Shown here one piece after another: positions 3,294-13,678 of a DNA stretch of 64,000 bases. How positions within the stretch are numbered: position 1 is the stretch's first letter; every line of letters starts with the position of its first letter. The notes beneath the pieces were generated by a model that searched no databases, was not told the DNA's origin, and saw only the letters and a program-made list of their open reading frames with translations. Both the position numbers and the translations under genes were made by a program. The DNA lies in assembly GCA_045660295.1 (NCBI GenBank), contig JAZRDN010000035.1, forward strand, positions 1,228 through 65,227, in the 5' to 3' direction. This stretch comes from Eubacteriales bacterium (GTDB taxonomy: Bacteria > Bacillota > Clostridia > Oscillospirales > CAG-272).

Positions 3294-3554
3294 ATGGTAA
3301 AAATAACTGTAAAGATCGAGGGCATGATGTGCCCCATGTGTGAGGCGCACGTTACCGAATGTGTAAAGAAAAATTTCAAGGTGAAAAGCGTTGTTTCTTC
3401 TCATAAGGAGGGCGAGACTGTTATAGAAGCCGCCGAGAGCATCGACCATGCCGCGCTTCAGAGCGAGATCGAAAAAACTGGCTACAAGGTGATTGAAATT
3501 TCCGAAGTGGTCTTGGCAAAGAAAGGCTTTTTCGCCTCGTTGTTTAAGAAATAA
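3294..3554 (+). CDS. Heavy-metal-associated (HMA) domain protein, CopZ-like
   Basis: 86 aa. The GMMCPMCE motif (MxCxxC) lies in a beta-alpha-beta-beta-alpha-beta sized domain. SD ggaggg upstream. Confidence 0.85.
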   Translation: MVKITVKIEGMMCPMCEAHVTECVKKNFKVKSVVSSHKEGETVIEAAESIDHAALQSEIEKTGYKVIEISEVVLAKKGFFASLFKK

Positions 3555-3562
3555 AACCAAAT

Positions 3563-3597
3563 AAAAAAACAGGCACTTTTAAGTGCCTGTTTTTTTA
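3563..3597. terminator. Bidirectional rho-independent terminator
   Basis: Stem acaggcac / gtgcctgt flanked by an A-run (3563-3569) and a T-run (3591-3597). Lies between convergent genes. Confidence 0.8.
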
Positions 3598-3606
3598 TCA
3601 TTTCAA

Positions 3607-4690: not shown

Positions 4691-5125
4691 TTATTTTTCG
4701 ATATAACTTTTCAAAAATTTCACAGCTTGCGCGTAGCCCTCAAAGCCCAGACCGCAAATAGTCTTTACCGCCACCATTGACACGTAGGAATGTTTTCTGA
4801 ACTCCTCGCGTGAATTGATGTCGGAGAGATGCACCTCAACCGTGGGGATAGACACCGCCTTGAGCGCGTCAAGAATCGCCACGCTTGTGTGGGTGTAAGC
4901 GGCGGGATTGATGATTATGCCGTCAAAAACGCCGTAAGCCGCCTGTATTTTGTCTACAATAGCCCCTTCGTGGTTTGATTGGTAAAGCTCGACCCCAACG
5001 CCTTCCGCGGTACAGGCGTCCTTTATGAAGCTACGGAGCGCCTCGAAATTCTGTGAGCCGTATATGTCAGGCTCGCGAAGCCCGAGAAGATTGAGATTTG
5101 GACCGTTTATTACAAGAAATTTCAT
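4691..5125 (-). CDS. aroQ: Type II 3-dehydroquinate dehydratase
   Basis: 144 aa. N-terminus MKFLVINGPNLNLLGLREPDIYG. Confidence 0.95.
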   Translation of the reverse strand: MKFLVINGPNLNLLGLREPDIYGSQNFEALRSFIKDACTAEGVGVELYQSNHEGAIVDKIQAAYGVFDGIIINPAAYTHTSVAILDALKAVSIPTVEVHLSDINSREEFRKHSYVSMVAVKTICGLGFEGYAQAVKFLKSYIEK

Positions 5126-5133
5126 AATTCACC

Positions 5134-6369
5134 TCAACTGTTGTGATAAAGCTTGATTATTTCGTCCGCCGTTTCCTCAAGCGGGCGGTTGTTGTCTACC
5201 TCTATGTCGCAGAAGGCGCGGTAAAGGGGAAGTCTGCGCTCGTAAAGCTCGTGAAGATCGGTCGTCTGCGAGATCGGTCTGCCGTCGGTGGGCAGATCGA
5301 CTATGGCGCGGTTTACGTAGAACACCCTGCCATTCTGACAAAGCGGCTCGCGGTTTTCTGGTCGGGTGACCACGCCGCCGCCGGTTGCGATTATCTTTCC
5401 GCTCTGCTTGCCCGCCTCGCAAACGCAGGCGTGCTCAAGGGCGCGGAAATAGCTCTCGCCGAATTTAGCGAATATTTCGGGGATTGTCATTCCCGCTTTT
5501 TTTACTATTAAAGCATCGGTGTCTATGACCTCACGCCCTGACTTTTGAGAAAGAAGCTCGCCAAGCGAGGTCTTGCCGCAGCCGGGCATTCCGATAAGCA
5601 CTATGTTTCCTGTCTCGGCGGCGATCATGTTGGTTATTCTGTCAATTTCGCTGTCGTCAATTTTCTTGTCAAGGAATATCTCGCAGGCGCGCTTTGCCTG
5701 CGCTACAAGCATGCAAAGACCGTTGATGCAGGGAATACCCAAGCGCTCCGCGTCAAGCAGAAATTTGGTCTTTGCGGGGTTGTATATCATGTCAAGCGCA
5801 CCCTCGCAGGCGGGGAAATCCGCAAGATCGACCGCCGACGCGCCGTTTTGGGGGTACATTCCCACAGGTGTAGTGTTTACGATGACCTCGGCGTCTCTGT
5901 GCTTGTACAAATTGCTGTAATTGTCCTTTCCGCTTCGCGAAATCACAATGACCGCCCTTGCGCCTCTGTCGGCACAGACCGTGCGCGCGGTCTCCGAAGC
6001 GCCGCCGCTGCCGAGGATCAGCACCTTTTTGCCCTCTATCCTTATTCCGCTTTTGTCTATCATGTAGGAAAAGCCGAAATAGTCGGTGTTGTCTCCGCGC
6101 AGACCACCACTTTTGAGATGCGTTATCGTGTTTACCGAACCGATGCGCTTTGCCTCGTCGGTTATTTCCTCAAGATATGGCATTACGGTCTTTTTGTAGG
6201 GGATAGTGACGTTCATTGCGTCAAATCGGTCAGAGGCGAGAAATCCCGCCACGTCATCCACGGGCATTTCAAAAAGCTCGTAGGTGTAATCGGCAAGCTC
6301 TCGGTGTATCTGTGGAGAAAATGAGTGTCCCAGATGCTCACCTAAAAGTCCGCATTTTATCTTTTTCAT
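5134..6369 (-). CDS. aroE/aroK: Fused shikimate dehydrogenase / shikimate kinase
   Basis: N-half has HSFSPQIH and NTDYFGF (AroE). C-half has P-loop GMPGCGKTS plus DTD (AroK). Both sit in one 411-aa frame. Confidence 0.9.
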   Translation of the reverse strand: MKKIKCGLLGEHLGHSFSPQIHRELADYTYELFEMPVDDVAGFLASDRFDAMNVTIPYKKTVMPYLEEITDEAKRIGSVNTITHLKSGGLRGDNTDYFGFSYMIDKSGIRIEGKKVLILGSGGASETARTVCADRGARAVIVISRSGKDNYSNLYKHRDAEVIVNTTPVGMYPQNGASAVDLADFPACEGALDMIYNPAKTKFLLDAERLGIPCINGLCMLVAQAKRACEIFLDKKIDDSEIDRITNMIAAETGNIVLIGMPGCGKTSLGELLSQKSGREVIDTDALIVKKAGMTIPEIFAKFGESYFRALEHACVCEAGKQSGKIIATGGGVVTRPENREPLCQNGRVFYVNRAIVDLPTDGRPISQTTDLHELYERRLPLYRAFCDIEVDNNRPLEETADEIIKLYHNS

Positions 6370-6382
6370 GTTTTACCTCGGT

Positions 6383-6655
6383 TTATTTGCCGTTTTTTGC
6401 GATAAGCTCGTCCTGATACGCGCGGGACTGCTTGAGGATTTCAAGATATATCTCGTGGGTATAGCCGCTCATATCACCCGAAAGCCAGGCTATCTTTTCA
6501 AGCAACGCCGTCTCTCTTGCTTTGTCAAGCACCGGCATACCGTTTGCTATCTTGTAAGCGGCTACCTCGGCGCTTACGCCCATGCGCAGGACAAGAAGCT
6601 TTACTATCTCGCGGTCAAGCGAGTCTATTTTTGTTCTGAGTTCACTGATTTCCAT
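6383..6655 (-). CDS. Chorismate mutase (AroQ class)
   Basis: 90 aa. LRTKIDSLDREIVKLLVLRMGVSAEVAAYK pattern. Confidence 0.85.
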   Translation of the reverse strand: MEISELRTKIDSLDREIVKLLVLRMGVSAEVAAYKIANGMPVLDKARETALLEKIAWLSGDMSGYTHEIYLEILKQSRAYQDELIAKNGK

Positions 6656-7853
6656 TTTGCGACGCCTTTCTTTGCTTTTTTGAATACTGTATAAGGTAGA
6701 TTATCGAGACTAACAGCACCGTGGGGAATACAGCCGAAATTACGAACGAAAGCTTAATGTCTCCGCCGAAGGCGTCGGCAACGCTTCCCGCAATAGAAGG
6801 TCCTATCATGCACCCGAAGTCACCGAGAAGCGCCAGAAAAGCAAACATCGAAACTCCGCCGCCCTGAATCATACCCGCCGCGTTGCTGATGTTGCCCGGC
6901 CACAGTATGCCTACCGAGAGACCGCAGATGCCGCACGCCAGAAGCGAGATCATCGGAAACGGAGCGATTGCCGCCGTCAGATATGAGGCTATGCAGAGCA
7001 GAGCGCTGAAAAGAATAAATTTTTTCAGACTTATTTTAGAGCTGAACCTTGCGTAAAAGACACGCGCCGAGCCCATGAGTACCGCAAACACGAAGGGACC
7101 GAGCAGATTTCCAAGCTCTCTTGAAACTCCGAGTCCGGCCTCGGCAAATGCCGCCGCCCATTGTGCCATGGTCATTTCCGCCGCGCCCGATACTAACATC
7201 ATTATGCCAATGACCCAGAATATCTTGTTGCCAAGATAGCTTCTGCCGTTCCCGTCGGGCTCGTCCTTGGGAAGGGGGTAGAGGGGAACGATACAGAAAA
7301 GCACTGCGCCCGTGATAGGAATTATTGCCCAAAGAGCCGAGAGGATTCGCCAATGCTCAATTCCCACGGTTGAGAAATATACGGTCGAAAGCAAAATAAC
7401 AACCGCCTGCCCCCAGCAATAGAAGGAGTGCAAAAGGCTCATGTATGATGACTTTTTCTTTGGCGGTGTGGGACAAGCCTCGACTATGGGGGTGATAAGC
7501 ACCTCAACGAGACCGCTTCCGATACTGCTTACCACCGTTGCAAGCATAAGACCAACGTATGGGGGCATGATAAACGGCAAAAATCCCAAGCCCGAAATGC
7601 CGAGAGCGGTGAGTATGTGCGCCGCGGTTATAAAGAAGCGGACGTTCATTTTTTCAGAAAACCTCGCCGCCAGCAGGTCAACTAAAAGCTGAACCAGAAA
7701 GCAGACCGCGATAAGCGAGCTTATTGCCGTCAGCGAAAGTCCGAACTGCGTGCCGAAGGTTATGTAAAGCAGAGGCGGAAAATTAATAGTGAGCGCTTGC
7801 GTGGCATAGCCCACAAAGCCCGCCGAAATGGTTGATTTGTAGTTTAATTTCAT
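6642..7853 (-). CDS. MFS transporter
   Basis: 403 aa with about 12 hydrophobic spans. Embedded in the aro operon; overlaps the chorismate mutase start by 14 nt. Confidence 0.8.
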   Translation of the reverse strand: MKLNYKSTISAGFVGYATQALTINFPPLLYITFGTQFGLSLTAISSLIAVCFLVQLLVDLLAARFSEKMNVRFFITAAHILTALGISGLGFLPFIMPPYVGLMLATVVSSIGSGLVEVLITPIVEACPTPPKKKSSYMSLLHSFYCWGQAVVILLSTVYFSTVGIEHWRILSALWAIIPITGAVLFCIVPLYPLPKDEPDGNGRSYLGNKIFWVIGIMMLVSGAAEMTMAQWAAAFAEAGLGVSRELGNLLGPFVFAVLMGSARVFYARFSSKISLKKFILFSALLCIASYLTAAIAPFPMISLLACGICGLSVGILWPGNISNAAGMIQGGGVSMFAFLALLGDFGCMIGPSIAGSVADAFGGDIKLSFVISAVFPTVLLVSIIYLIQYSKKQRKASQNGNQ

Positions 7854-7855
7854 TT

Positions 7856-8968
7856 TTAGTTTGCCTTTTCGTCAAGTATTGCGTCAAGTATTGCTATAGC
7901 CGCCGCCGCTTCGATTACGGGAACGGCGCGCGGAACGATGCAGGGGTCGTGTCTGCCCTTGATGACCAGCTTGGTGTTTTCGCGCCTTGAAAGGCTTACG
8001 CTGTCCTGCTCCTTTGCGATAGACGGAGTGGGCTTTATTCCCACACGGAAGATTATCGGCATGCCGTTGCTCATTCCGCCCGAGATACCACCGCAGTTGT
8101 TGGTGCGAGTTCTTATTTTATCACCGTCCATGAAGTATGGGTCGTTGTTCTCCGAGCCGAAAAGCTCCGCAGAGCCAAAGCCCTTGCCAAACTCAATAGC
8201 CTTTACCGCGGGGACTGAGAAGATGATTGAGGAAATTCTGCCCTCAAGTCCCGCAAACATGTGCTCGCCTACGCCAATGGGAAGCCCTATAACGGCACAT
8301 TCGATTATGCCGCCTACCGAGTCGCCGTCCATGCGCGCGGACTCAATGACCTCTTGCATCCTCTCACCTGCCATAATGGAAAGGGTGGGGAATTCGTGCT
8401 CCGAAAGGGTGTCAAAGTCCTTTTCGTTTACCCCGCAAGGGTCAAACTCGATATCCTTTTCGCCCTTGACCGAATATATGTGCGCGGCTACCTTTATGCC
8501 CATTTTTTCGAGTATTTGCAGACAGATGCCGCCTACGATGCACATGGGGGCAGTGAGTCTGCCCGAAAAATGTCCGCCGCCGCGCAGGTCTACGCCCTCG
8601 CCGAATTTAACACGCGCGGGGTAATCGGCGTGAGAGGGGCGGGGAACATCAACGAGATTTGAGTAGTCGCCTGAGTGCATGTTGGAGTTTCTGATGATTG
8701 CCTTGAACGTAGTGCCGTCAAGGGTGGCTGTTCCGGAAATGTCATCGCCATCGGGGCAAACGCCCGACAGGAATATCGGCTTGTCAGCTTCCTTTCGAGC
8801 GGTGGAATATTTGTTGTTACCCGGCGCGCGGCGCTTCATAAAGGCAAGCAGAGCCTCAACGTCAAACTCCGCACCCTTTGGAAGTCCCTCGGCTATAACG
8901 CCTATTTCGGGGTCGTGAGAGCCGCCGTATATAGAGATTTTGAGATTGTTTCCGTAGGTAGTAGCCAT
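7856..8968 (-). CDS. aroC: Chorismate synthase
   Basis: 370 aa. Motifs RPSHADY, GGGHFSGR and GRHDPC. Confidence 0.93.
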   Translation of the reverse strand: MATTYGNNLKISIYGGSHDPEIGVIAEGLPKGAEFDVEALLAFMKRRAPGNNKYSTARKEADKPIFLSGVCPDGDDISGTATLDGTTFKAIIRNSNMHSGDYSNLVDVPRPSHADYPARVKFGEGVDLRGGGHFSGRLTAPMCIVGGICLQILEKMGIKVAAHIYSVKGEKDIEFDPCGVNEKDFDTLSEHEFPTLSIMAGERMQEVIESARMDGDSVGGIIECAVIGLPIGVGEHMFAGLEGRISSIIFSVPAVKAIEFGKGFGSAELFGSENNDPYFMDGDKIRTRTNNCGGISGGMSNGMPIIFRVGIKPTPSIAKEQDSVSLSRRENTKLVIKGRHDPCIVPRAVPVIEAAAAIAILDAILDEKAN

Positions 8969-8976
8969 TTTTCCTC

Positions 8977-9558
8977 CTATATGAGTTGCGCTATATCAAT
9001 GCTAAAATCATTTTTAAGCATGTCGTGAAGCAGCTTTACGGGCAGACCGACCACGTTGAAGTAGTCGCCCTCAATGCCCTTTATCCACATTGACGCAAGC
9101 CCTTGAATGGCGTATGCGCCCGCCTTGTCGTAAGGCTCGTCGGAATTTACGTATATTTCCTTGTCGGAGTCCGACAGTATATCGAAAATAACGTGCGTGG
9201 TCTCGCTTGAAACCACCGCTTTTTCGCGCGTGATAAGCGCGATTCCGCTTATCACGTCGTGCTTGCTGCCCGAGAGCATGTCAAGCATGCGCTTTGCGTC
9301 GCTCTTGTCGCGGGGCTTTCCGAGGATTTCTCCGCCGCACGCCACTACGGTGTCCGAGGCTATTATAAGCGTGTCGTTGTCCTTAAGAATATCCGCAACC
9401 GCGCGCCCCTTGCGCATCGCCAACTCTTCAACGTAGGCGCGAGGGTCGGTAAGGGCGCAGTTTTCGTCTGTGTCCGCGGTGATTATTTCAAATTTAATAC
9501 CCAAGTCGGCGAGAATCTCACGCCGTCTGGGGGATTTTGATGCCAATATAAAATTCAT
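8977..9558 (-). CDS. maf: Maf-like nucleoside triphosphate pyrophosphatase
   Basis: 193 aa. ILASKSPRRREIL and AGAYAIQG motifs. Confidence 0.9.
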   Translation of the reverse strand: MNFILASKSPRRREILADLGIKFEIITADTDENCALTDPRAYVEELAMRKGRAVADILKDNDTLIIASDTVVACGGEILGKPRDKSDAKRMLDMLSGSKHDVISGIALITREKAVVSSETTHVIFDILSDSDKEIYVNSDEPYDKAGAYAIQGLASMWIKGIEGDYFNVVGLPVKLLHDMLKNDFSIDIAQLI

Positions 9559-9560
9559 TG

Positions 9561-10865
9561 CTAATTTCCTTTGCTCAATTTCTCGAAGGCCTCCCAGAAT
9601 TTCGGGTAGGATTTTGCAACCGCCTGCGCGTCGCTTATTGTTACCTCACCGTCGCAGACCGTAGAGGCGACAGCCGCCGCCATAGCTATTCTGTGGTCGT
9701 TTTCGGCGTGTACGCTTCCGCCCTTCAAATTTGGCTTTCCGTTTATGATAAGTCCGTCAGCGGTCTCTTTTATGTCAGCGCCGAGGGCAGAGAGCATGTT
9801 TGTTACCGATATAAGTCGGTCGCTTTCCTTAATTCTCAGGCGCGACGCACCGTAAATAAGCGTTTCGCCATCACTTACCGATGCCACTACCGCCAATATC
9901 GGCACAAGGTCGGGAATCTGCGTGGCGTCTATTCTGATTCCGCGCAAGGGGCGGTGCATTACTGTTACTTGGTCGCCAGACTCAATAACGTCAGCGCCGA
10001 ATTTTTTCAAAAGCTCAAGAATCCTCATGTCGCCTTGGCGAGAGCCTAAGTTCAGCGAGGTAACCGTAACAGGCTTTTTGCCGATAGCGCCCGCGCATAG
10101 CCAGAAGGCGGCGTTTGACCAATCGCCCTCGACACGCAGGTCAGCGGGCGCGCGGTAATCCATACTCACGGGTATCTTGTATTTAGCGTTTTCGCCGTTG
10201 TCTCGGTTTGGATATCCTTCCTCAAAGTTTACGCCAAACTCGGCAAGCGCGTCAAGCGTCATATCTATGTATGGCGCAGATTCTATGTCTCCCGTCAGCG
10301 TAAGTGAGCTTTCAAGCTCCTCCGCGGGCGCGCCGTTGTATTTGTAGATAAGAGGAAGCGCAAACATAAGTCCGCTTACAAACTGCGATGATATATTTGC
10401 GGCGACAGTGTAGTCGCCGTGGCGGAGAGCACCGCTTGTCAAAAGGGGATTTGTGCCTTGCGGCGACATTGACATTCCGCCCTGCTCAAGCTCCTCGAAC
10501 ATGGGCGAGAGGGGTCTTTGGGGCAGTCTGCCGTGCATAACGAAGGTGGCATCGGCACCGATAGCCGACGCTATTGGAAGCAGGAAACGGAGCGTTGAGC
10601 CCGACTCGCCGCAATCAAGCACAGCGCCGTTGTTTACTCGGCGTATGGGGGTGACGTGATAAAGGTCGCCGTAGCGCACGATATCCGCGCCCAGAGCGTT
10701 CAGACACTCGGCGGTGGCGCATATGTCGGCGTTGGTGTCCTCGCACACTACGTCGCTTTCGCGGTCGGCAAAGGCGGCACAGATAAGAAGTCTGTGCGCC
10801 ATTGATTTAGACGATATTGCTTTTATTTTGCCCCCCAGCGTGGGGGCGTTCAGCTTTATTTCCAT
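9561..10865 (-). CDS. aroA: 3-phosphoshikimate 1-carboxyvinyltransferase (EPSP synthase)
   Basis: KSMAHRLL, RIKESDR and DHRIAMA motifs. I chose ATG 10865, downstream of the aroB stop, over the track start at 10913. Confidence 0.92.
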   Translation of the reverse strand: MEIKLNAPTLGGKIKAISSKSMAHRLLICAAFADRESDVVCEDTNADICATAECLNALGADIVRYGDLYHVTPIRRVNNGAVLDCGESGSTLRFLLPIASAIGADATFVMHGRLPQRPLSPMFEELEQGGMSMSPQGTNPLLTSGALRHGDYTVAANISSQFVSGLMFALPLIYKYNGAPAEELESSLTLTGDIESAPYIDMTLDALAEFGVNFEEGYPNRDNGENAKYKIPVSMDYRAPADLRVEGDWSNAAFWLCAGAIGKKPVTVTSLNLGSRQGDMRILELLKKFGADVIESGDQVTVMHRPLRGIRIDATQIPDLVPILAVVASVSDGETLIYGASRLRIKESDRLISVTNMLSALGADIKETADGLIINGKPNLKGGSVHAENDHRIAMAAAVASTVCDGEVTISDAQAVAKSYPKFWEAFEKLSKGN

Positions 10866-10878
10866 GTTAAAATTCCTT

Positions 10879-11928
10879 TTAAAGTCCCAGCGCGATAAAA
10901 TCGCGGATATCATCGGTGCTCATATCGTGAACGTAGCTATCACCGATAGCGCGGGGAAGAATAAATGAGATAGTTCCGCCCATGCGCTTTTTGTCGCCCG
11001 CGGCAACCGCTGCAAGCTCGTCCGCGGTGAATTTACAGCTTGTGGGAAGCGAATAGTCGGCAAGCATTTTTTCTATTTCCGTGGGAACGGTTGCCTCGCA
11101 AATTCCCGATTTCGCCGACGCGCGTGCTACGATAGCCATGCCGATGGCCACTGCAGAGCCATGGGATATCCCGAACTCGGAGCATATCTCGACCGCGTGT
11201 CCTACCGTATGTCCGAGATTGAGCAGACGGCGCTCGCCGTGGTCTCGCTCGTCGCGGTTTACTATGTCTCGCTTGTTCGAAACGCAGTTAGCGATAATAT
11301 CCTCTATCTGCGGTTTTATGGGCTTTTTCAGCTTCTCAAAGAGAGGCGCGTCGTTGATAACGCCGTACTTGATGACCTCAGCGCAACCGTCGGCAAAGAT
11401 GTCGGCAGGGAGCGTGTCAAGAGTCTCGTAATCGCATATAACAAGGCTTGGCTGGTGGAACGAGCCAACAAGATTTTTGCCCTCGGGAATATTTACAGCG
11501 GTCTTGCCGCCCACAGAGGAGTCAACCGCCGCAAGCAGTGTGGTGGGTATCTGAACGAATTTGATTCCGCGCAGATATACCGCCGCCGCAAAGCCCGTAA
11601 GGTCGCCCACAACTCCGCCGCCCAGGGCGATAAGAAAGTCGGAGCGTGTCATGTGATTATCAGCAAGGAAACCGAGAAGCGCACCGAGGTTTTCCATGCT
11701 CTTGGAAGCCTCGCCGTGGGGAATAACGAATTTTATCGGCTCATAGCCCGCATCCTTGAGCGACCTTTCAAGCGCCGCGCCGTAAAGCGCGTCAACCGTG
11801 TCATCGCTGACGATAGCCACGGCGTGCTTGCCAAGGTTCTCCATGCAGAGCCTTCCCACGTCCGCGAGTAATCCCTTTCCTATTATTATATCGTATTTTA
11901 TTGATGCTTCAACCTTAATCTTTATCAT
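10879..11928 (-). CDS. aroB: 3-dehydroquinate synthase
   Basis: 349 aa. GGGVVGDLTGFAAA and LNLGHTVGHA motifs. Confidence 0.93.
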   Translation of the reverse strand: MIKIKVEASIKYDIIIGKGLLADVGRLCMENLGKHAVAIVSDDTVDALYGAALERSLKDAGYEPIKFVIPHGEASKSMENLGALLGFLADNHMTRSDFLIALGGGVVGDLTGFAAAVYLRGIKFVQIPTTLLAAVDSSVGGKTAVNIPEGKNLVGSFHQPSLVICDYETLDTLPADIFADGCAEVIKYGVINDAPLFEKLKKPIKPQIEDIIANCVSNKRDIVNRDERDHGERRLLNLGHTVGHAVEICSEFGISHGSAVAIGMAIVARASAKSGICEATVPTEIEKMLADYSLPTSCKFTADELAAVAAGDKKRMGGTISFILPRAIGDSYVHDMSTDDIRDFIALGL

Positions 11929-11986
11929 TTGCCGTCTACCTTTTCTTTAAGAATCCTGCCCTCGCGGAGAATGTTGCGCAAGCGCT

Positions 11987-12036
11987 CAAAATTAAACAAA
12001 AATCGGAACCCTCGGTGTTTTTACCGATAGATTCCG
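11987..12036 (-). terminator. Intrinsic terminator inside the aro leader (attenuator, segments 3:4)
   Basis: Minus strand: CGGAAUCUAUCGGU (12036-12023) / ACCGAGGGUUCCG (12016-12004), followed by AUUUUUGUUUAAUUUUG. Confidence 0.75.
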
Positions 12037-12115
12037 CAAATTAAACTTATAAAAATCCATCAAAAAGCACCTTTATTATCAGTTGTTATAGTAATAAAGG
12101 TAAAAATAAGATTTT
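12026..12115 (-). promoter_or_regulatory. Alternative-pairing segments of the aro leader (1:2 hairpin and candidate 2:3 antiterminator)
   Basis: ACCUUUAUUA (12101-12092) pairs with UAAUAAAGGU (12078-12069). AAAAUCU (12115-12109) pairs with GGAUUUU (12058-12052). GAUGGAUU (12061-12054) can instead pair with AAUCUAUC (12033-12026). Confidence 0.5.
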
Positions 12116-12135
12116 GCGAAAATCGAAGACTTCAT
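12079..12135 (-). CDS. Candidate Tyr/Phe-rich leader peptide of the aro operon (MKSSIFAKSYFYLYYYNN)
   Basis: GAGG (12145-12142) lies 6 nt before the ATG. 18 codons, 5 Tyr plus 2 Phe, then three consecutive stops TGA TAA TAA. Sits between the promoter and the terminator. Confidence 0.6.
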   Translation of the reverse strand: MKSSIFAKSYFYLYYYNN

Positions 12136-12166
12136 AACAAACCTCATTAAAACTTTTGATACAGTT

Positions 12167-12195
12167 AGTTTATCACCTTTTTTGTTGATTGTCAA
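12167..12195 (-). promoter_or_regulatory. Sigma-A promoter of the aro leader/operon (extended -10)
   Basis: Minus strand: TTGACA (12195-12190), 17-nt spacer, TGaTAAACT (-10 at 12172-12167). Confidence 0.6.
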
Positions 12196-12298
12196 TAGAA
12201 TTTTTCATTTTTGGCAATCTGTCAAAAACAGCCATTTTAAGAACGGATTTTTTGGTTTGTTTGCACAAATAAACAAGTCGGCATTTTGGCAAAATGAC

Positions 12299-12327
12299 TT
12301 GACAAAAGCGCTCGTATATGTTATAAT
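12299..12327 (+). promoter_or_regulatory. Sigma-A promoter (extended -10) for the CorC-family gene
   Basis: TTGACA (12299-12304), 17-nt spacer, TGtTATAAT (-10 at 12322-12327). Confidence 0.65.
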
Positions 12328-12364
12328 AGTCAAAATATTATTTTTTGGAGGTAGATTATCTATT

Positions 12365-13678
12365 ATGGAACCTGACAGTATAGCGAAGATAGTATTTATT
12401 GCGATACTTGTAGTATTCAGTGCATACTTCTCGGCTACCGAAACAGCGTTCTCCACACTCAACCGCATCAGGTTGAAAAACGCAGCCGACAACGGCGACA
12501 AAAAGGCGGGCAAGGTCTTAAAGCTTGCCGAGAACTACGATAAGCTCATTACGACGGTGCTTGTCGGTAACAACATCGTAAACATTCTTGCTTCTTCTAT
12601 CGCAACCGTGCTTTTTATAAGCATATTGGAGTACAACAATCTCGGTTCTACGGTGTCAACAGTCGTTATGACAGTAGTGGTTCTTATTTTCGGCGAGGTT
12701 TGTCCCAAGAGCCTTGCTAAGGAATCACCCGAAAAATTCGCGAAATTTTCCTATCCCTTTATTTCTTTCCTTTGCGTGGTATTCGCTCCCGTATCGGCTA
12801 TTCTTATAGGAATACGTAAGTTGGCATCTATGCTCATTAAAACCAAGGACGAAAACGTTATCACAGAAGAAGAGATACTCACATTCGTTGAGGAAGCAGA
12901 GCTTGAGGGCGGTATCGACGAGCAGGAAAGCGAGCTTATCCGAAGCGCGGTAGAATTCAATGACCTCGAAGCGCAGGAAATACTCACTCACCGAGTTGAT
13001 ATTGTCGCAATAGCCGACGACGATGAGCTTGAAAAGATAGACACGCTTTTCCGCGAAACAGGCTTTTCCAGACTTCCCGTGTATAACGATACCATAGATA
13101 ATATTACGGGTGTAATTCACCATAAGGACTTTTATAACAACGTAAAGACAGGTGAACGCACACTTGACGAGATAGTTAAAAAGGTTGTCTCGGTACATAA
13201 ATCTATCAAGATAGGAGACCTTCTCAGACTTCTCCAAAAAGACAAGAGCCATATTGCGGTGGTCGCTGACGACTACGGTGGAACGCTGGGTATTGTCACA
13301 ATGGAGGACATTATCGAGGAGCTTGTCGGTGAGATATGGGACGAACACGATGAGGTGGTCGAGGAGATAGTACAGCTTGAGGAAAACAAGTACAAAATAC
13401 TCTGCACCGCGCCCATAGATAAGGTTTTTGAGTTGTTTGATATTGATGAAGAAATTGACGAAGCGTCGGTCGGCGGCTGGGTCATGAGCGAGATGAACAG
13501 GATTCCCGAGGAGGGCGAGACGTTCAGCTACAAGAACATCGACGTTGTCGTAACCAAGACCGAATCCAGACGAGTTGTTGAAATAGAAGCAACTGTCAAT
13601 CCCATAGACGACGAGGACACTAAGGAACCGTCGAAGGAAATTGACGAATCCAAGGCAGAAAGCGAAGTCAACAGTTAA
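12365..13678 (+). CDS. HlyC/CorC (CNNM) family transporter: DUF21 membrane domain, CBS pair, CorC_HlyC domain
   Basis: Start chosen at ATG 12365 (GGAGG at 12347-12351). The track ORF start at 12182 would run through the promoter. C-terminal acidic tail. Confidence 0.88.
   Translation: MEPDSIAKIVFIAILVVFSAYFSATETAFSTLNRIRLKNAADNGDKKAGKVLKLAENYDKLITTVLVGNNIVNILASSIATVLFISILEYNNLGSTVSTVVMTVVVLIFGEVCPKSLAKESPEKFAKFSYPFISFLCVVFAPVSAILIGIRKLASMLIKTKDENVITEEEILTFVEEAELEGGIDEQESELIRSAVEFNDLEAQEILTHRVDIVAIADDDELEKIDTLFRETGFSRLPVYNDTIDNITGVIHHKDFYNNVKTGERTLDEIVKKVVSVHKSIKIGDLLRLLQKDKSHIAVVADDYGGTLGIVTMEDIIEELVGEIWDEHDEVVEEIVQLEENKYKILCTAPIDKVFELFDIDEEIDEASVGGWVMSEMNRIPEEGETFSYKNIDVVVTKTESRRVVEIEATVNPIDDEDTKEPSKEIDESKAESEVNS

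Follow-up and report, generated by a model that had tools for sequence, protein, structure and literature searches.

A conserved leader before aromatic amino acid genes in uncultured Clostridia, probably a Tyr/Phe-sensing leader-peptide attenuator

The leader region in front of aroB

This report concerns a short leader in a 64,000-nucleotide (nt) stretch of DNA from an Eubacteriales bacterium (GTDB lineage Bacteria; Bacillota; Clostridia; Oscillospirales; CAG-272; GenBank assembly GCA_045660295.1, contig JAZRDN010000035.1, positions 1,228 to 65,227), called the window below and used as the coordinate system throughout. The leader lies on the minus strand directly before aroB, the first gene of an eight-gene operon for aromatic amino acid synthesis. 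An earlier reading of the sequence (the original prediction) had taken it to be a candidate ribosome-mediated attenuator, in which a promoter and a Shine-Dalgarno (SD) sequence precede a short open reading frame (ORF) rich in Tyr and Phe codons, followed by the arms of alternative RNA hairpins and an intrinsic terminator. Direct reading of the minus strand from 12400 to 11850 placed each of these elements at its predicted coordinates, as listed here.

12167-12195, minus strand: sigma-70-type promoter; -35 element TTGACA at 12195-12190, 17-nt spacer, extended -10 element TGaTAAACT at 12175-12167 (-10 hexamer at 12172-12167)
12142-12145, minus strand: SD sequence GAGG, 6 nt 5′ of the leader ATG
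12079-12135, minus strand: leader ORF encoding MKSSIFAKSYFYLYYYNN; ATG at 12135, 18 codons and TGA (12081-12079), followed by TAA TAA
12088-12108, minus strand: regulatory codon run, codons 10-16, TAT TTT TAC CTT TAT TAC TAT (Y F Y L Y Y Y), six of seven aromatic; proposed site of ribosome stalling
12068-12102, minus strand: inner hairpin of segments 1:2 (anti-antiterminator), 12102-12092 pairing with 12078-12068, the stop codon lying in the loop and 3′ arm; predicted in the minimum-free-energy (MFE) fold
12052-12115, minus strand: outer helix of segments 1:2, AAAAUCU (12115-12109) with GGAUUUU (12058-12052), enclosing the inner hairpin; predicted in the MFE fold of the sub-sequence
12014-12071, minus strand: antiterminator (2:3), GGUGcUUUU-UGAUGGAUUUU (12071-12052) with 12035-12014, ~20 pairs
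12004-12036, minus strand: intrinsic terminator stem-loop (3:4), CGGAAUCUaUCGGU / AAAAAC / ACCGAGGGUUCCG, -16.0 kcal/mol
11987-12003, minus strand: U tract of the terminator, AUUUUUGUUUAAUUUUG, whose 3′ part holds a deletion junction near 11993/11992

The promoter was also reported by a promoter scan, with 10 of 12 matches and the extended TG, and transcription probably starts near 12160, ~7 nt past the -10 element. The arms of the inner hairpin are ACCUUUAUUA (12101-12092) and UAAUAAAGGU (12078-12069), and this hairpin together with the terminator constitutes the MFE structure; the region 11985-12120 has a z score of -3.1, and one of 200 shuffled sequences folds as well. The sequence 3′ of the inner hairpin, GCUUUUUG, could act as a pause signal that synchronizes transcription with translation. 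The terminator lies ~75 nt before aroB, as predicted, is followed at once by its U tract, and has kept its complementarity among relatives. It is absent from the output of a simple terminator scanner that lists the homologous terminator of the relative L011, and the bulged A at 12028 in the stem may account for this miss.

Across the 64 kb, two seven-codon windows have at least six aromatic codons, where shuffled sequence would give 0.27. Because of this rarity, and because the element is conserved in many other contigs, a chance origin of the aromatic run is excluded.

Conservation of the leader ORF in relatives

A scan of GTDB genomes with AroB yielded 11 loci, which belong to metagenome-assembled genomes of uncultured Eubacteriales, Oscillospiraceae and Clostridia. 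In all 11, the DNA just 5′ of aroB is the 3′ end of a coding gene with the conserved C-terminus ...REGR..KE..DG; the ORF map gives this gene ~280 amino acids (aa) in L001-L005 and L011, and Pfam identifies it as prephenate dehydrogenase (tyrA) in other relatives. DAHP synthase (aroF) is encoded upstream of tyrA at nine of the 11 loci (L007 is too short, and L010 gave no match). Apart from the distant variant L119, tyrA precedes aroB in the relatives with readable upstream DNA (L139 is too short), and the leader, wherever found in relatives, precedes aroF.

Leaders were found at eight loci from the AroB scan (L001-L006, L008 and L011), on a metagenome contig (L013), on four contigs reached via DAHP-synthase homologues (L132, L134, L136 and L138) and on two reached via AroB homologues (L141 and L143), so that with the window there are 16 distinct leaders, in addition to two distant Phe-rich variants. 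The metagenome contig came from a scan with the pattern TTTATTWYTWYN{5,25}ATAAARGTGMTTT, which was too permissive and gave at least 120 matches, nearly all due to chance; L013 was recognized among them at once, and the two variants, L075 and L119, were recognized as members later, through the covariance model described below. The attenuator is not universal in the group, because L009, which carries DAHP synthase, tyrA and aroB, has no leader ORF upstream; its positions 1-413 are unrelated sequence with several GC-rich hairpins or repeats. The encoded leader peptides are as follows.

Window: MKSSIFAKSYFYLYYYNN
L001: MKSSVFVKSYFYLYYYNN
L002: MKSQVFVKSYFYLYYYNN
L003: MKSSVFVKSYFYLYYSAKR
L004: MKSATFAKSYFYLYYYGEN
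L141: MKSAMFVKSYFYLYYYNNR
L143: MRSSMFVKSYFYLYYYNN
L005: MNNVIFANKFYYLYFYCCR
L006: MFSSAKAFAYFYFYYFYEK
L008: MFGCAFTFAYYYFYYYYEA
L011: MKNMTFTAAYYYDYFYFTRCK
L013: MFGSIFASAYYYFYYYYAE
L132: MTSGKFFAFAYYYFYYYYAK
L134: MHNSTFTFAYYYFYYFMD
L136: MLDARFAYGYFYFYYHYAA
L138: MNNASFAFAYYYFYFYYNE

The 15 other leaders thus share with the window an ORF that starts with ATG in all 16 cases, is ~18-21 codons long, and is preceded in 15 of the 16 by an SD-like motif 6-10 nt 5′ of the start. Where upstream sequence was inspected, the promoter is also shared, in the form TTGACA-N16/17-TGnTAAACT (TATAAT in L011). The Tyr/Phe run begins at codon 10 in 15 leaders and at codon 11 in L132, and contains five to eight aromatic codons out of eight; across the family the run is made of TAT (50), TAC (33), TTT (23) and TTC (1), that is, 83 Tyr codons and 24 Phe codons. 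The nine codons at the N-terminus drift in sequence, although their number is kept (15/16), and codons 10-11, which lie outside the core helix, vary among TAT, TAC and TTT only. A conserved run behind a drifting N-terminus is what selection on translated Tyr/Phe codons predicts, and is not predicted by RNA structure alone. Because the gene 5′ of the leader varies by contig (CNNM, HTH, DegV, radical SAM or ABC transporter), the leader belongs with the downstream operon.

The two distant variants, L075 (1163-1252, minus strand) and L119 (~5550-5800, plus strand), both lie upstream of DAHP synthase. Their ORFs of 32 codons, MNVILFAAIYFSFYFFFSENKIKVISLAAKTT and MNTILFVAIYFYFYFFFKQNKIKVISLAAEKI, are rich in Phe (IYFSFYFFF and IYFYFYFFF), read through segment 2 and stop just 5′ of the terminator. 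In L119, aroB directly follows aroF and tyrA is missing; a Phe-rich run before an operon lacking tyrA hints that codon content may follow operon content.

A covariance model (R1) was built from nine distant leaders (L005, L006, L008, L011, L013, L132, L134, L136 and L138), leaving out the window and its close kin. It matches the window at 12135-12052 on the minus strand with 47.8 bits (E ~9e-9) and has no other significant match in the 64 kb. Over 100 loci, R1 recovers every known member, and among the ~76 chance pattern matches in that set it gives one match, L075, itself upstream of DAHP synthase.

Alternative RNA structures and their covariation

All 14 leaders examined fold with a bipartite 1:2 helix, in which the inner hairpin pairs the aromatic codons with sequence at or just past the stop codon, and the outer helix pairs ORF codons ~6-9 with distal segment 2. 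The outer helix is formed by UUUCACAGC with GCUGUGGAAA in L011, and by UUCGCAA with UUGCGGA in L005; in the window it would occupy the distal half of segment 2. In the codon-aligned MAFFT alignment used for the 1:2 column counts (A2), 84.9% of the cells of the 1:2 helix are paired, compared with 40-56% when the partners are slid. Changes on both sides were observed at columns 40/73 (CG 6, UG 5, UA 2), 45/68 (UA 11, CG 3) and 47/66 (AU 11, UA 2), and the outer pair 28/84 also covaries (GC 8, UA 5, AU 1). At columns 45/68, a synonymous change of TAT to TAC is offset by A to G in the 3′ arm.

For the 2:3 pairing, the leaders were folded with the ribosome-covered part, up to the last aromatic codon, removed and the 3′ arm of the terminator withheld except for 4 nt. 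Under these constraints one long helix of segment 2 with the terminator is the MFE structure in 10 of 10 leaders; four leaders added later are covered by column counts and duplex tests only. The pairing of GAUGGAUU (12061-12054) with AAUCUAUC (12033-12026) in the original prediction is present, but its 8 base pairs are only the middle part of a helix of ~20 pairs between 12071-12052 and 12035-12014, the latter running from the terminator 5′ arm through the loop into the first 4 nt of the 3′ arm. The window antiterminator has a predicted energy of -15.2 kcal/mol, against -8.7 +/- 2.8 kcal/mol for shuffled sequences; across the family, antiterminators range from -14 to -23 kcal/mol and terminators from -15 to -21 kcal/mol. 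The near equality of the two energies in the window (-15.2 and -16.0 kcal/mol) is as would be expected for a kinetic switch.

A full-length MAFFT alignment (A1) was dropped, since spacer lengths vary and the terminators were misaligned. In its place, segment 2 was joined to the terminator with the spacer removed (A3), which is a manipulation of the sequences; the outer terminator stem and the distal half of the antiterminator take different registers in the two clades and were left out of the column counts. In A3, the nine core pairs of the antiterminator common to both clades are 91.7% paired across 14 leaders, compared with 36-61% for slid partners. The duplex of segment 2 with segment 3 has a mean energy of -16.3 kcal/mol for cognate partners, -12.8 kcal/mol for non-cognate partners and -7.6 kcal/mol for shuffled ones, and six of 10000 permutations reach the cognate mean.

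The terminator stems differ in sequence between clades but keep their complementarity (CGGAAUCU.UCGGU, GAAGCCU..CGGUG, GGACGCUC.GCAGU, GGCUGUGCAGU and CCGAGUGUCAACAGU), and among their top five pairs, which are 87% paired, GC alternates with UA or AU. Compensatory changes are thus seen in all three helices. At one position they are linked: a change of C to U at A3 column 48 occurs together with changes at terminator column 36 (G to A) and at antiterminator column 7 (G to A, or a G-U wobble), as expected for two mutually exclusive helices that share one strand.

The geometry of the ORF relative to these helices is also kept. When the last Tyr codon (12090-12088) occupies the ribosomal A site, the RNA is free from 12071 onward, and in the eight leaders counted by hand segment 2 begins 4-13 nt past the stop codon, within the ribosome footprint.

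Proposed mechanism

The features of the mechanistic class are present together at this locus: a promoter, SD sequence and ORF, a cluster of cognate codons, a terminator, an antiterminator exclusive with it, and a 1:2 helix laid over the regulatory codons. The alternation of 1:2, 2:3 and 3:4 pairings of the trpL/pheL type, on which the original prediction was built, is supported by the folding, conservation and compensatory changes in 16 leaders and two variants. The element is therefore read here, with good though not complete confidence, as a functional transcription attenuator of the leader-peptide type that senses Tyr and Phe through a translating ribosome. What is sensed is most likely charged tRNA-Tyr and, secondarily, tRNA-Phe, judging from the codons of the run.

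From the start near 12160, the 18-codon ORF would be translated during transcription of the leader. When Tyr and Phe are plentiful, the ribosome would run through codons 10-16 to the stop at 12081-12079, where its footprint would reach GGUG (12071-12068), with which segment 2 begins. Once the ribosome is released, segment 1 (12102-12092 and 12115-12109) would pair again with segment 2 (12078-12068 and 12058-12052), leaving segment 3 free to pair with segment 4, so that the terminator forms and a leader RNA of ~165 nt is produced. When Tyr-tRNA or Phe-tRNA is scarce, the ribosome would probably stall in the run and hold segment 1; segment 2 (12071-12052) would then pair with 12035-12014, the terminator would be blocked, and RNA polymerase would enter the operon. 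In this scheme, ORF translation, ribosome stalling, termination and the effect of amino acid supply are all deduced from the sequence elements. The physiology fits, because the native first genes encode DAHP synthase and prephenate dehydrogenase of the Tyr branch, and the operon includes, as the original prediction had stated, a chorismate mutase (CM_2, 6655-6383). Where the element was found in relatives, it probably controls aroF-tyrA-aroB-aroA and the genes that follow.

The operon and a private deletion of aroF and tyrA

An unexpected feature of the window is a private deletion that fuses the intact attenuator to aroB. The genes downstream of the leader, taken from the ORF list and Pfam matches, and the remnant that marks the deletion are listed here.

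11925-11992, minus strand: 3′ remnant of tyrA (prephenate dehydrogenase), encoding ...ERLRNILREGRILKEKVDGK*; it carries the ribosome-binding site of aroB, and its stop codon overlaps the aroB ATG
4691-11928, minus strand: downstream operon of eight genes, all intact and full-length
10879-11928, minus strand: aroB
9561-10913, minus strand: aroA
8977-9558, minus strand: maf (Maf-like nucleotide pyrophosphatase), between aroA and aroC
7856-8968, minus strand: aroC
6642-7853, minus strand: MFS transporter, between aroC and chorismate mutase
6383-6655, minus strand: chorismate mutase (CM_2, by Pfam)
5134-6369, minus strand: aroE-aroK fusion
4691-5125, minus strand: aroQ

The order aroA-maf-aroC is also present in L141.

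In blastn comparisons, homology to the tyrA ends of relatives begins at window position 11992. The remnant is 82% identical to TyrA across the last 22 aa (tblastn), and within the aligned stretch a single base separates it from the tyrA end of L140. Upstream of 11993, the window matches the region 5′ of DAHP synthase in L001-L004, at 74-80% over ~650-730 nt. Because the DNA 5′ of 11993 thus corresponds to sequence before aroF and 11992-11925 corresponds to the 3′ end of tyrA, comparison of these sequences indicates that the window genome has lost ~1.8 kb, namely aroF and tyrA except for the last 66 nt of the latter, with a break inside the U-rich tail of the terminator. The deletion joins the terminator tail to the tyrA 3′ end, so that the attenuator now stands 75 nt 5′ of aroB; any microhomology at the 11993/11992 junction amounts to 5 nt at most and is uncertain. 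The original prediction of an attenuator in front of a shikimate operon is accordingly correct for the present arrangement, but the native place of the element is before aroF-tyrA-aroB.

The deletion was seen in no relative examined. The closest relatives found, L139 and L140 (AroB 94% identical in aa and 90% in nt), both keep tyrA sequence before aroB, which in L140 comprises the last 143 codons. No DAHP synthase or TyrA is encoded elsewhere within the 64-kb window.

Points against the interpretation and rival explanations

Several observations weigh against reading the leader as a functional attenuator. In equilibrium folding with the ribosome footprint forced to be unpaired, the terminator stays the MFE structure in every sequence; the antiterminator took its place only in folds from which the 3′ arm of the terminator was withheld. 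Therefore the switch must be kinetic, and no thermodynamic flip is claimed. The original prediction had proposed two 1:2 pairings, and only the inner hairpin is well supported in the clade of the window: the outer helix, AAAAUCU with GGAUUUU, has there an energy of -5.3 kcal/mol, compared with -6.8 +/- 2.6 kcal/mol for shuffled sequence, which is not better than chance, and 1903 of 10000 permutations were as good when cognate and non-cognate partners were compared. The outer helix is stronger in the distant clade (-8 to -13 kcal/mol). Since the inner hairpin and the antiterminator overlap by only 4 nt (GGUG), full mutual exclusion needs this weak outer helix, and basal read-through could therefore be high. 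For the covariation counts, 14-16 related sequences from about two clades were available, which amounts to few independent events. Some of the conservation of the aromatic codons could be structural, because these codons are U/A-rich and constrained by the hairpin. Finally, with aroF and tyrA gone from the operon of the window genome, the pathway may be in decay and the element a leftover of it.

This last explanation, in which the loss of aroF and tyrA signals decay of aromatic biosynthesis and the leader no longer functions, is the one to which we give most weight among the rivals, although we consider it unlikely. Neither the locus nor the remainder of the window encodes DAHP synthase, the first committed enzyme, or TyrA, and the loss looks recent, since the closest relative with readable upstream DNA keeps tyrA. 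However, the eight downstream genes are intact and full-length with strong Pfam matches, and all elements of the leader are intact as well. Substitutions specific to the window leave pairing intact or strengthen it: in the antiterminator, for instance, A12028 replaces the U-G pair of relatives by U-A. The deletion also precisely spared the terminator and the ribosome-binding site of aroB, and a second gene for DAHP synthase or TyrA may exist elsewhere in the genome.

It is still less probable, and in our judgment quite improbable, that the leader regulates as a structured non-coding RNA, for instance a riboswitch or an attenuator that binds a protein or a tRNA, and that the small ORF is incidental to a U/A-rich hairpin. 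The UAU, UAC and UUU codons do form the 5′ arm of a conserved hairpin, and amino acid operons of Firmicutes, those for aromatic amino acids among them, are normally assigned to T-boxes or RNA-binding proteins. However, no sequence in the 64 kb reaches the gathering threshold of an Rfam 15 family, whether tRNA, riboswitch or T-box, and even at permissive E-values there is nothing relevant in 11800-12800 (E up to 10) or in eight relatives (E up to 0.1). A T-box leader (RF00230) was rejected, as the original prediction had anticipated, since the 237-nt leader has neither an Rfam match to it nor the T-box core motif. Leaders regulated by TRAP, as in Bacillus trp and related genes, carry nine to eleven (G/U)AG repeats spaced 2-3 nt apart and overlapping the antiterminator; the 237 nt hold only five scattered GAG/UAG triplets, and thus no TRAP site. 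Nor is there any sign of a conserved unpaired pocket or of a large fold with many stems. The restriction of codons 10-11 to TAT, TAC and TTT outside the core helix also speaks against an incidental ORF, as do the invariant ATG, the presence of an SD sequence, and the distance of nine codons that is maintained despite drift of the N-terminus. The ORF consistently ends a short way 5′ of segment 2, except in L075 and L119, where it ends immediately 5′ of the terminator.

Least probable of all is a nascent chain that arrests the ribosome on sensing free Tyr or Phe, as in TnaC, or control of translation or mRNA stability rather than of termination: peptide-dependent stalling systems exist, and the C-terminal half of the peptide is well conserved (YFYLYYY, YYYFYYYY), but a biosynthetic operon should respond to starvation and not to excess, runs of cognate codons are the hallmark of sensors of tRNA charging, as established for trpL, pheL and hisL, the free interchange of Y and F in the run and the unconserved flanking residues argue against a specific arrest sequence, and the hairpin, which is followed by a U tract throughout the family, stands 30-75 nt 5′ of the first gene and leaves the SD sequence of that gene uncovered, which points to intrinsic termination.

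Comparison with known attenuators

Documented leader-peptide attenuators are mostly proteobacterial and actinobacterial, and the known classical leader peptides read Trp, Phe, His, Leu, Thr or Ile/Val codons. The attenuators of pheL-pheA (RF01859) and trpL-trpEDCBA (RF00513) in E. coli likewise consist of a short translated ORF with a run of codons for the pathway product, alternative 1:2, 2:3 and 3:4 pairings, and a terminator before the first structural gene, and stalling likewise frees segment 2. The window leader has no sequence or covariance-model similarity to them; none of the Rfam leader families (Phe_leader, Trp_leader, His_leader, Leu_leader, Thr_leader and others) gave a covariance-model match. 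In contrast to pheL and trpL, the present family would sense mainly Tyr, its hosts are uncultured Clostridia and not a proteobacterium, its antiterminator in the window pairs with the terminator loop and both arms, and its target is the common shikimate pathway plus tyrA, not the terminal Phe or Trp branch. T-box and TRAP leaders share with it the 5′ leader position, the choice between terminator and antiterminator, and induction on amino acid limitation, but they sense uncharged tRNA or the binding of TRAP to (G/U)AG repeats, whereas sensing in the window leader is proposed to occur via translation of the ORF.

The original prediction had called such a leader unusual and uncharacterized. In a literature search, no description of this Tyr/Phe leader family of Clostridia was found; however, leader attenuators of aroF itself are known in Corynebacterium glutamicum and proposed in Acholeplasma. 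The closest functional analogue, compared by description only, is aroR of C. glutamicum, a leader peptide with Phe-Tyr-Phe before aroF that is described as acting by ribosome-mediated attenuation (PMC11802643, citing Neshat 2014) and is reported in the same source to respond to limitation of Phe, not of Tyr. Like the family described here, it places aromatic codons before an operon starting with DAHP synthase, but it is actinobacterial and has three aromatic codons, compared with a Tyr-dominated run of five to eight that also precedes tyrA. In Acholeplasma (wall-less Mollicutes), the candidate upstream ORF uORFC-13-1 occurs exclusively before aroF, with a promoter, a ribosome-binding site, a start codon, a U run encoding Phe and an adjacent intrinsic terminator (Brewer et al., 2021; PMC8632094). 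Again by description only, that U run gives ‘at least one’ Phe codon, as opposed to a Tyr-rich run, and uORFC-13-1 is found only in Acholeplasma and some environmental sequences. Few leader peptides have been reported from Firmicutes, one example being the His leaders of bacilli (Naville and Gautheret; PMC2965389), and E. coli aroF is entered in a table as under an ‘attenuator sensing tyr-tRNA’ (PMC2659441, citing Camakaris et al., 1980).

Because analogues exist in Corynebacterium and Acholeplasma, the leaders described here are a new family of a known mechanism and not a new mechanism, and the understanding of attenuation itself is unchanged. The chances seem about even that this is the first well-supported family of leader-peptide attenuators reading mainly Tyr codons, widespread in uncultured, Oscillospiraceae-like Clostridia of gut and rumen, where it would replace the expected T-box or TRAP, and that the window genome represents its natural rewiring by a recent deletion of ~1.8 kb, through which the shikimate genes that remain came under the intact Tyr sensor. 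Such a family would add a Tyr-dominated sensor to the known set of leader peptides, and annotation based on Rfam misses this regulator of aromatic amino acid synthesis in many uncultured gut and rumen Clostridia. The private deletion bears on the prediction of aromatic amino acid auxotrophy from metagenome-assembled genomes, and the compact 18-codon element could serve as a Tyr/Phe-responsive switch.

Neighboring features of the window

Upstream of the leader, the window carries a divergently transcribed gene with its own promoter.

12299-12327, plus strand: promoter of the CNNM/CBS/CorC gene, perfect consensus TTGACA-17-TG-TATAAT (12/12)
12368-13678, plus strand: divergent CNNM/CBS/CorC gene (putative Mg/Co efflux)

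The layout of a divergent CNNM gene and the aro leader is common to L001-L004 and L141.

The other aromatic run of the window (FFIWFYF; 3568, minus strand, within 3548-3600) was rejected as a leader candidate, being merely the T tract of a strong bidirectional terminator, AAAAAAACAGGCACTTAAAAGTGCCTGTTTTTTT. This terminator sits between two convergent genes, one for an SH3-domain protein (4599-3607, minus strand) and the other a small ORF (3294-3554, plus strand).

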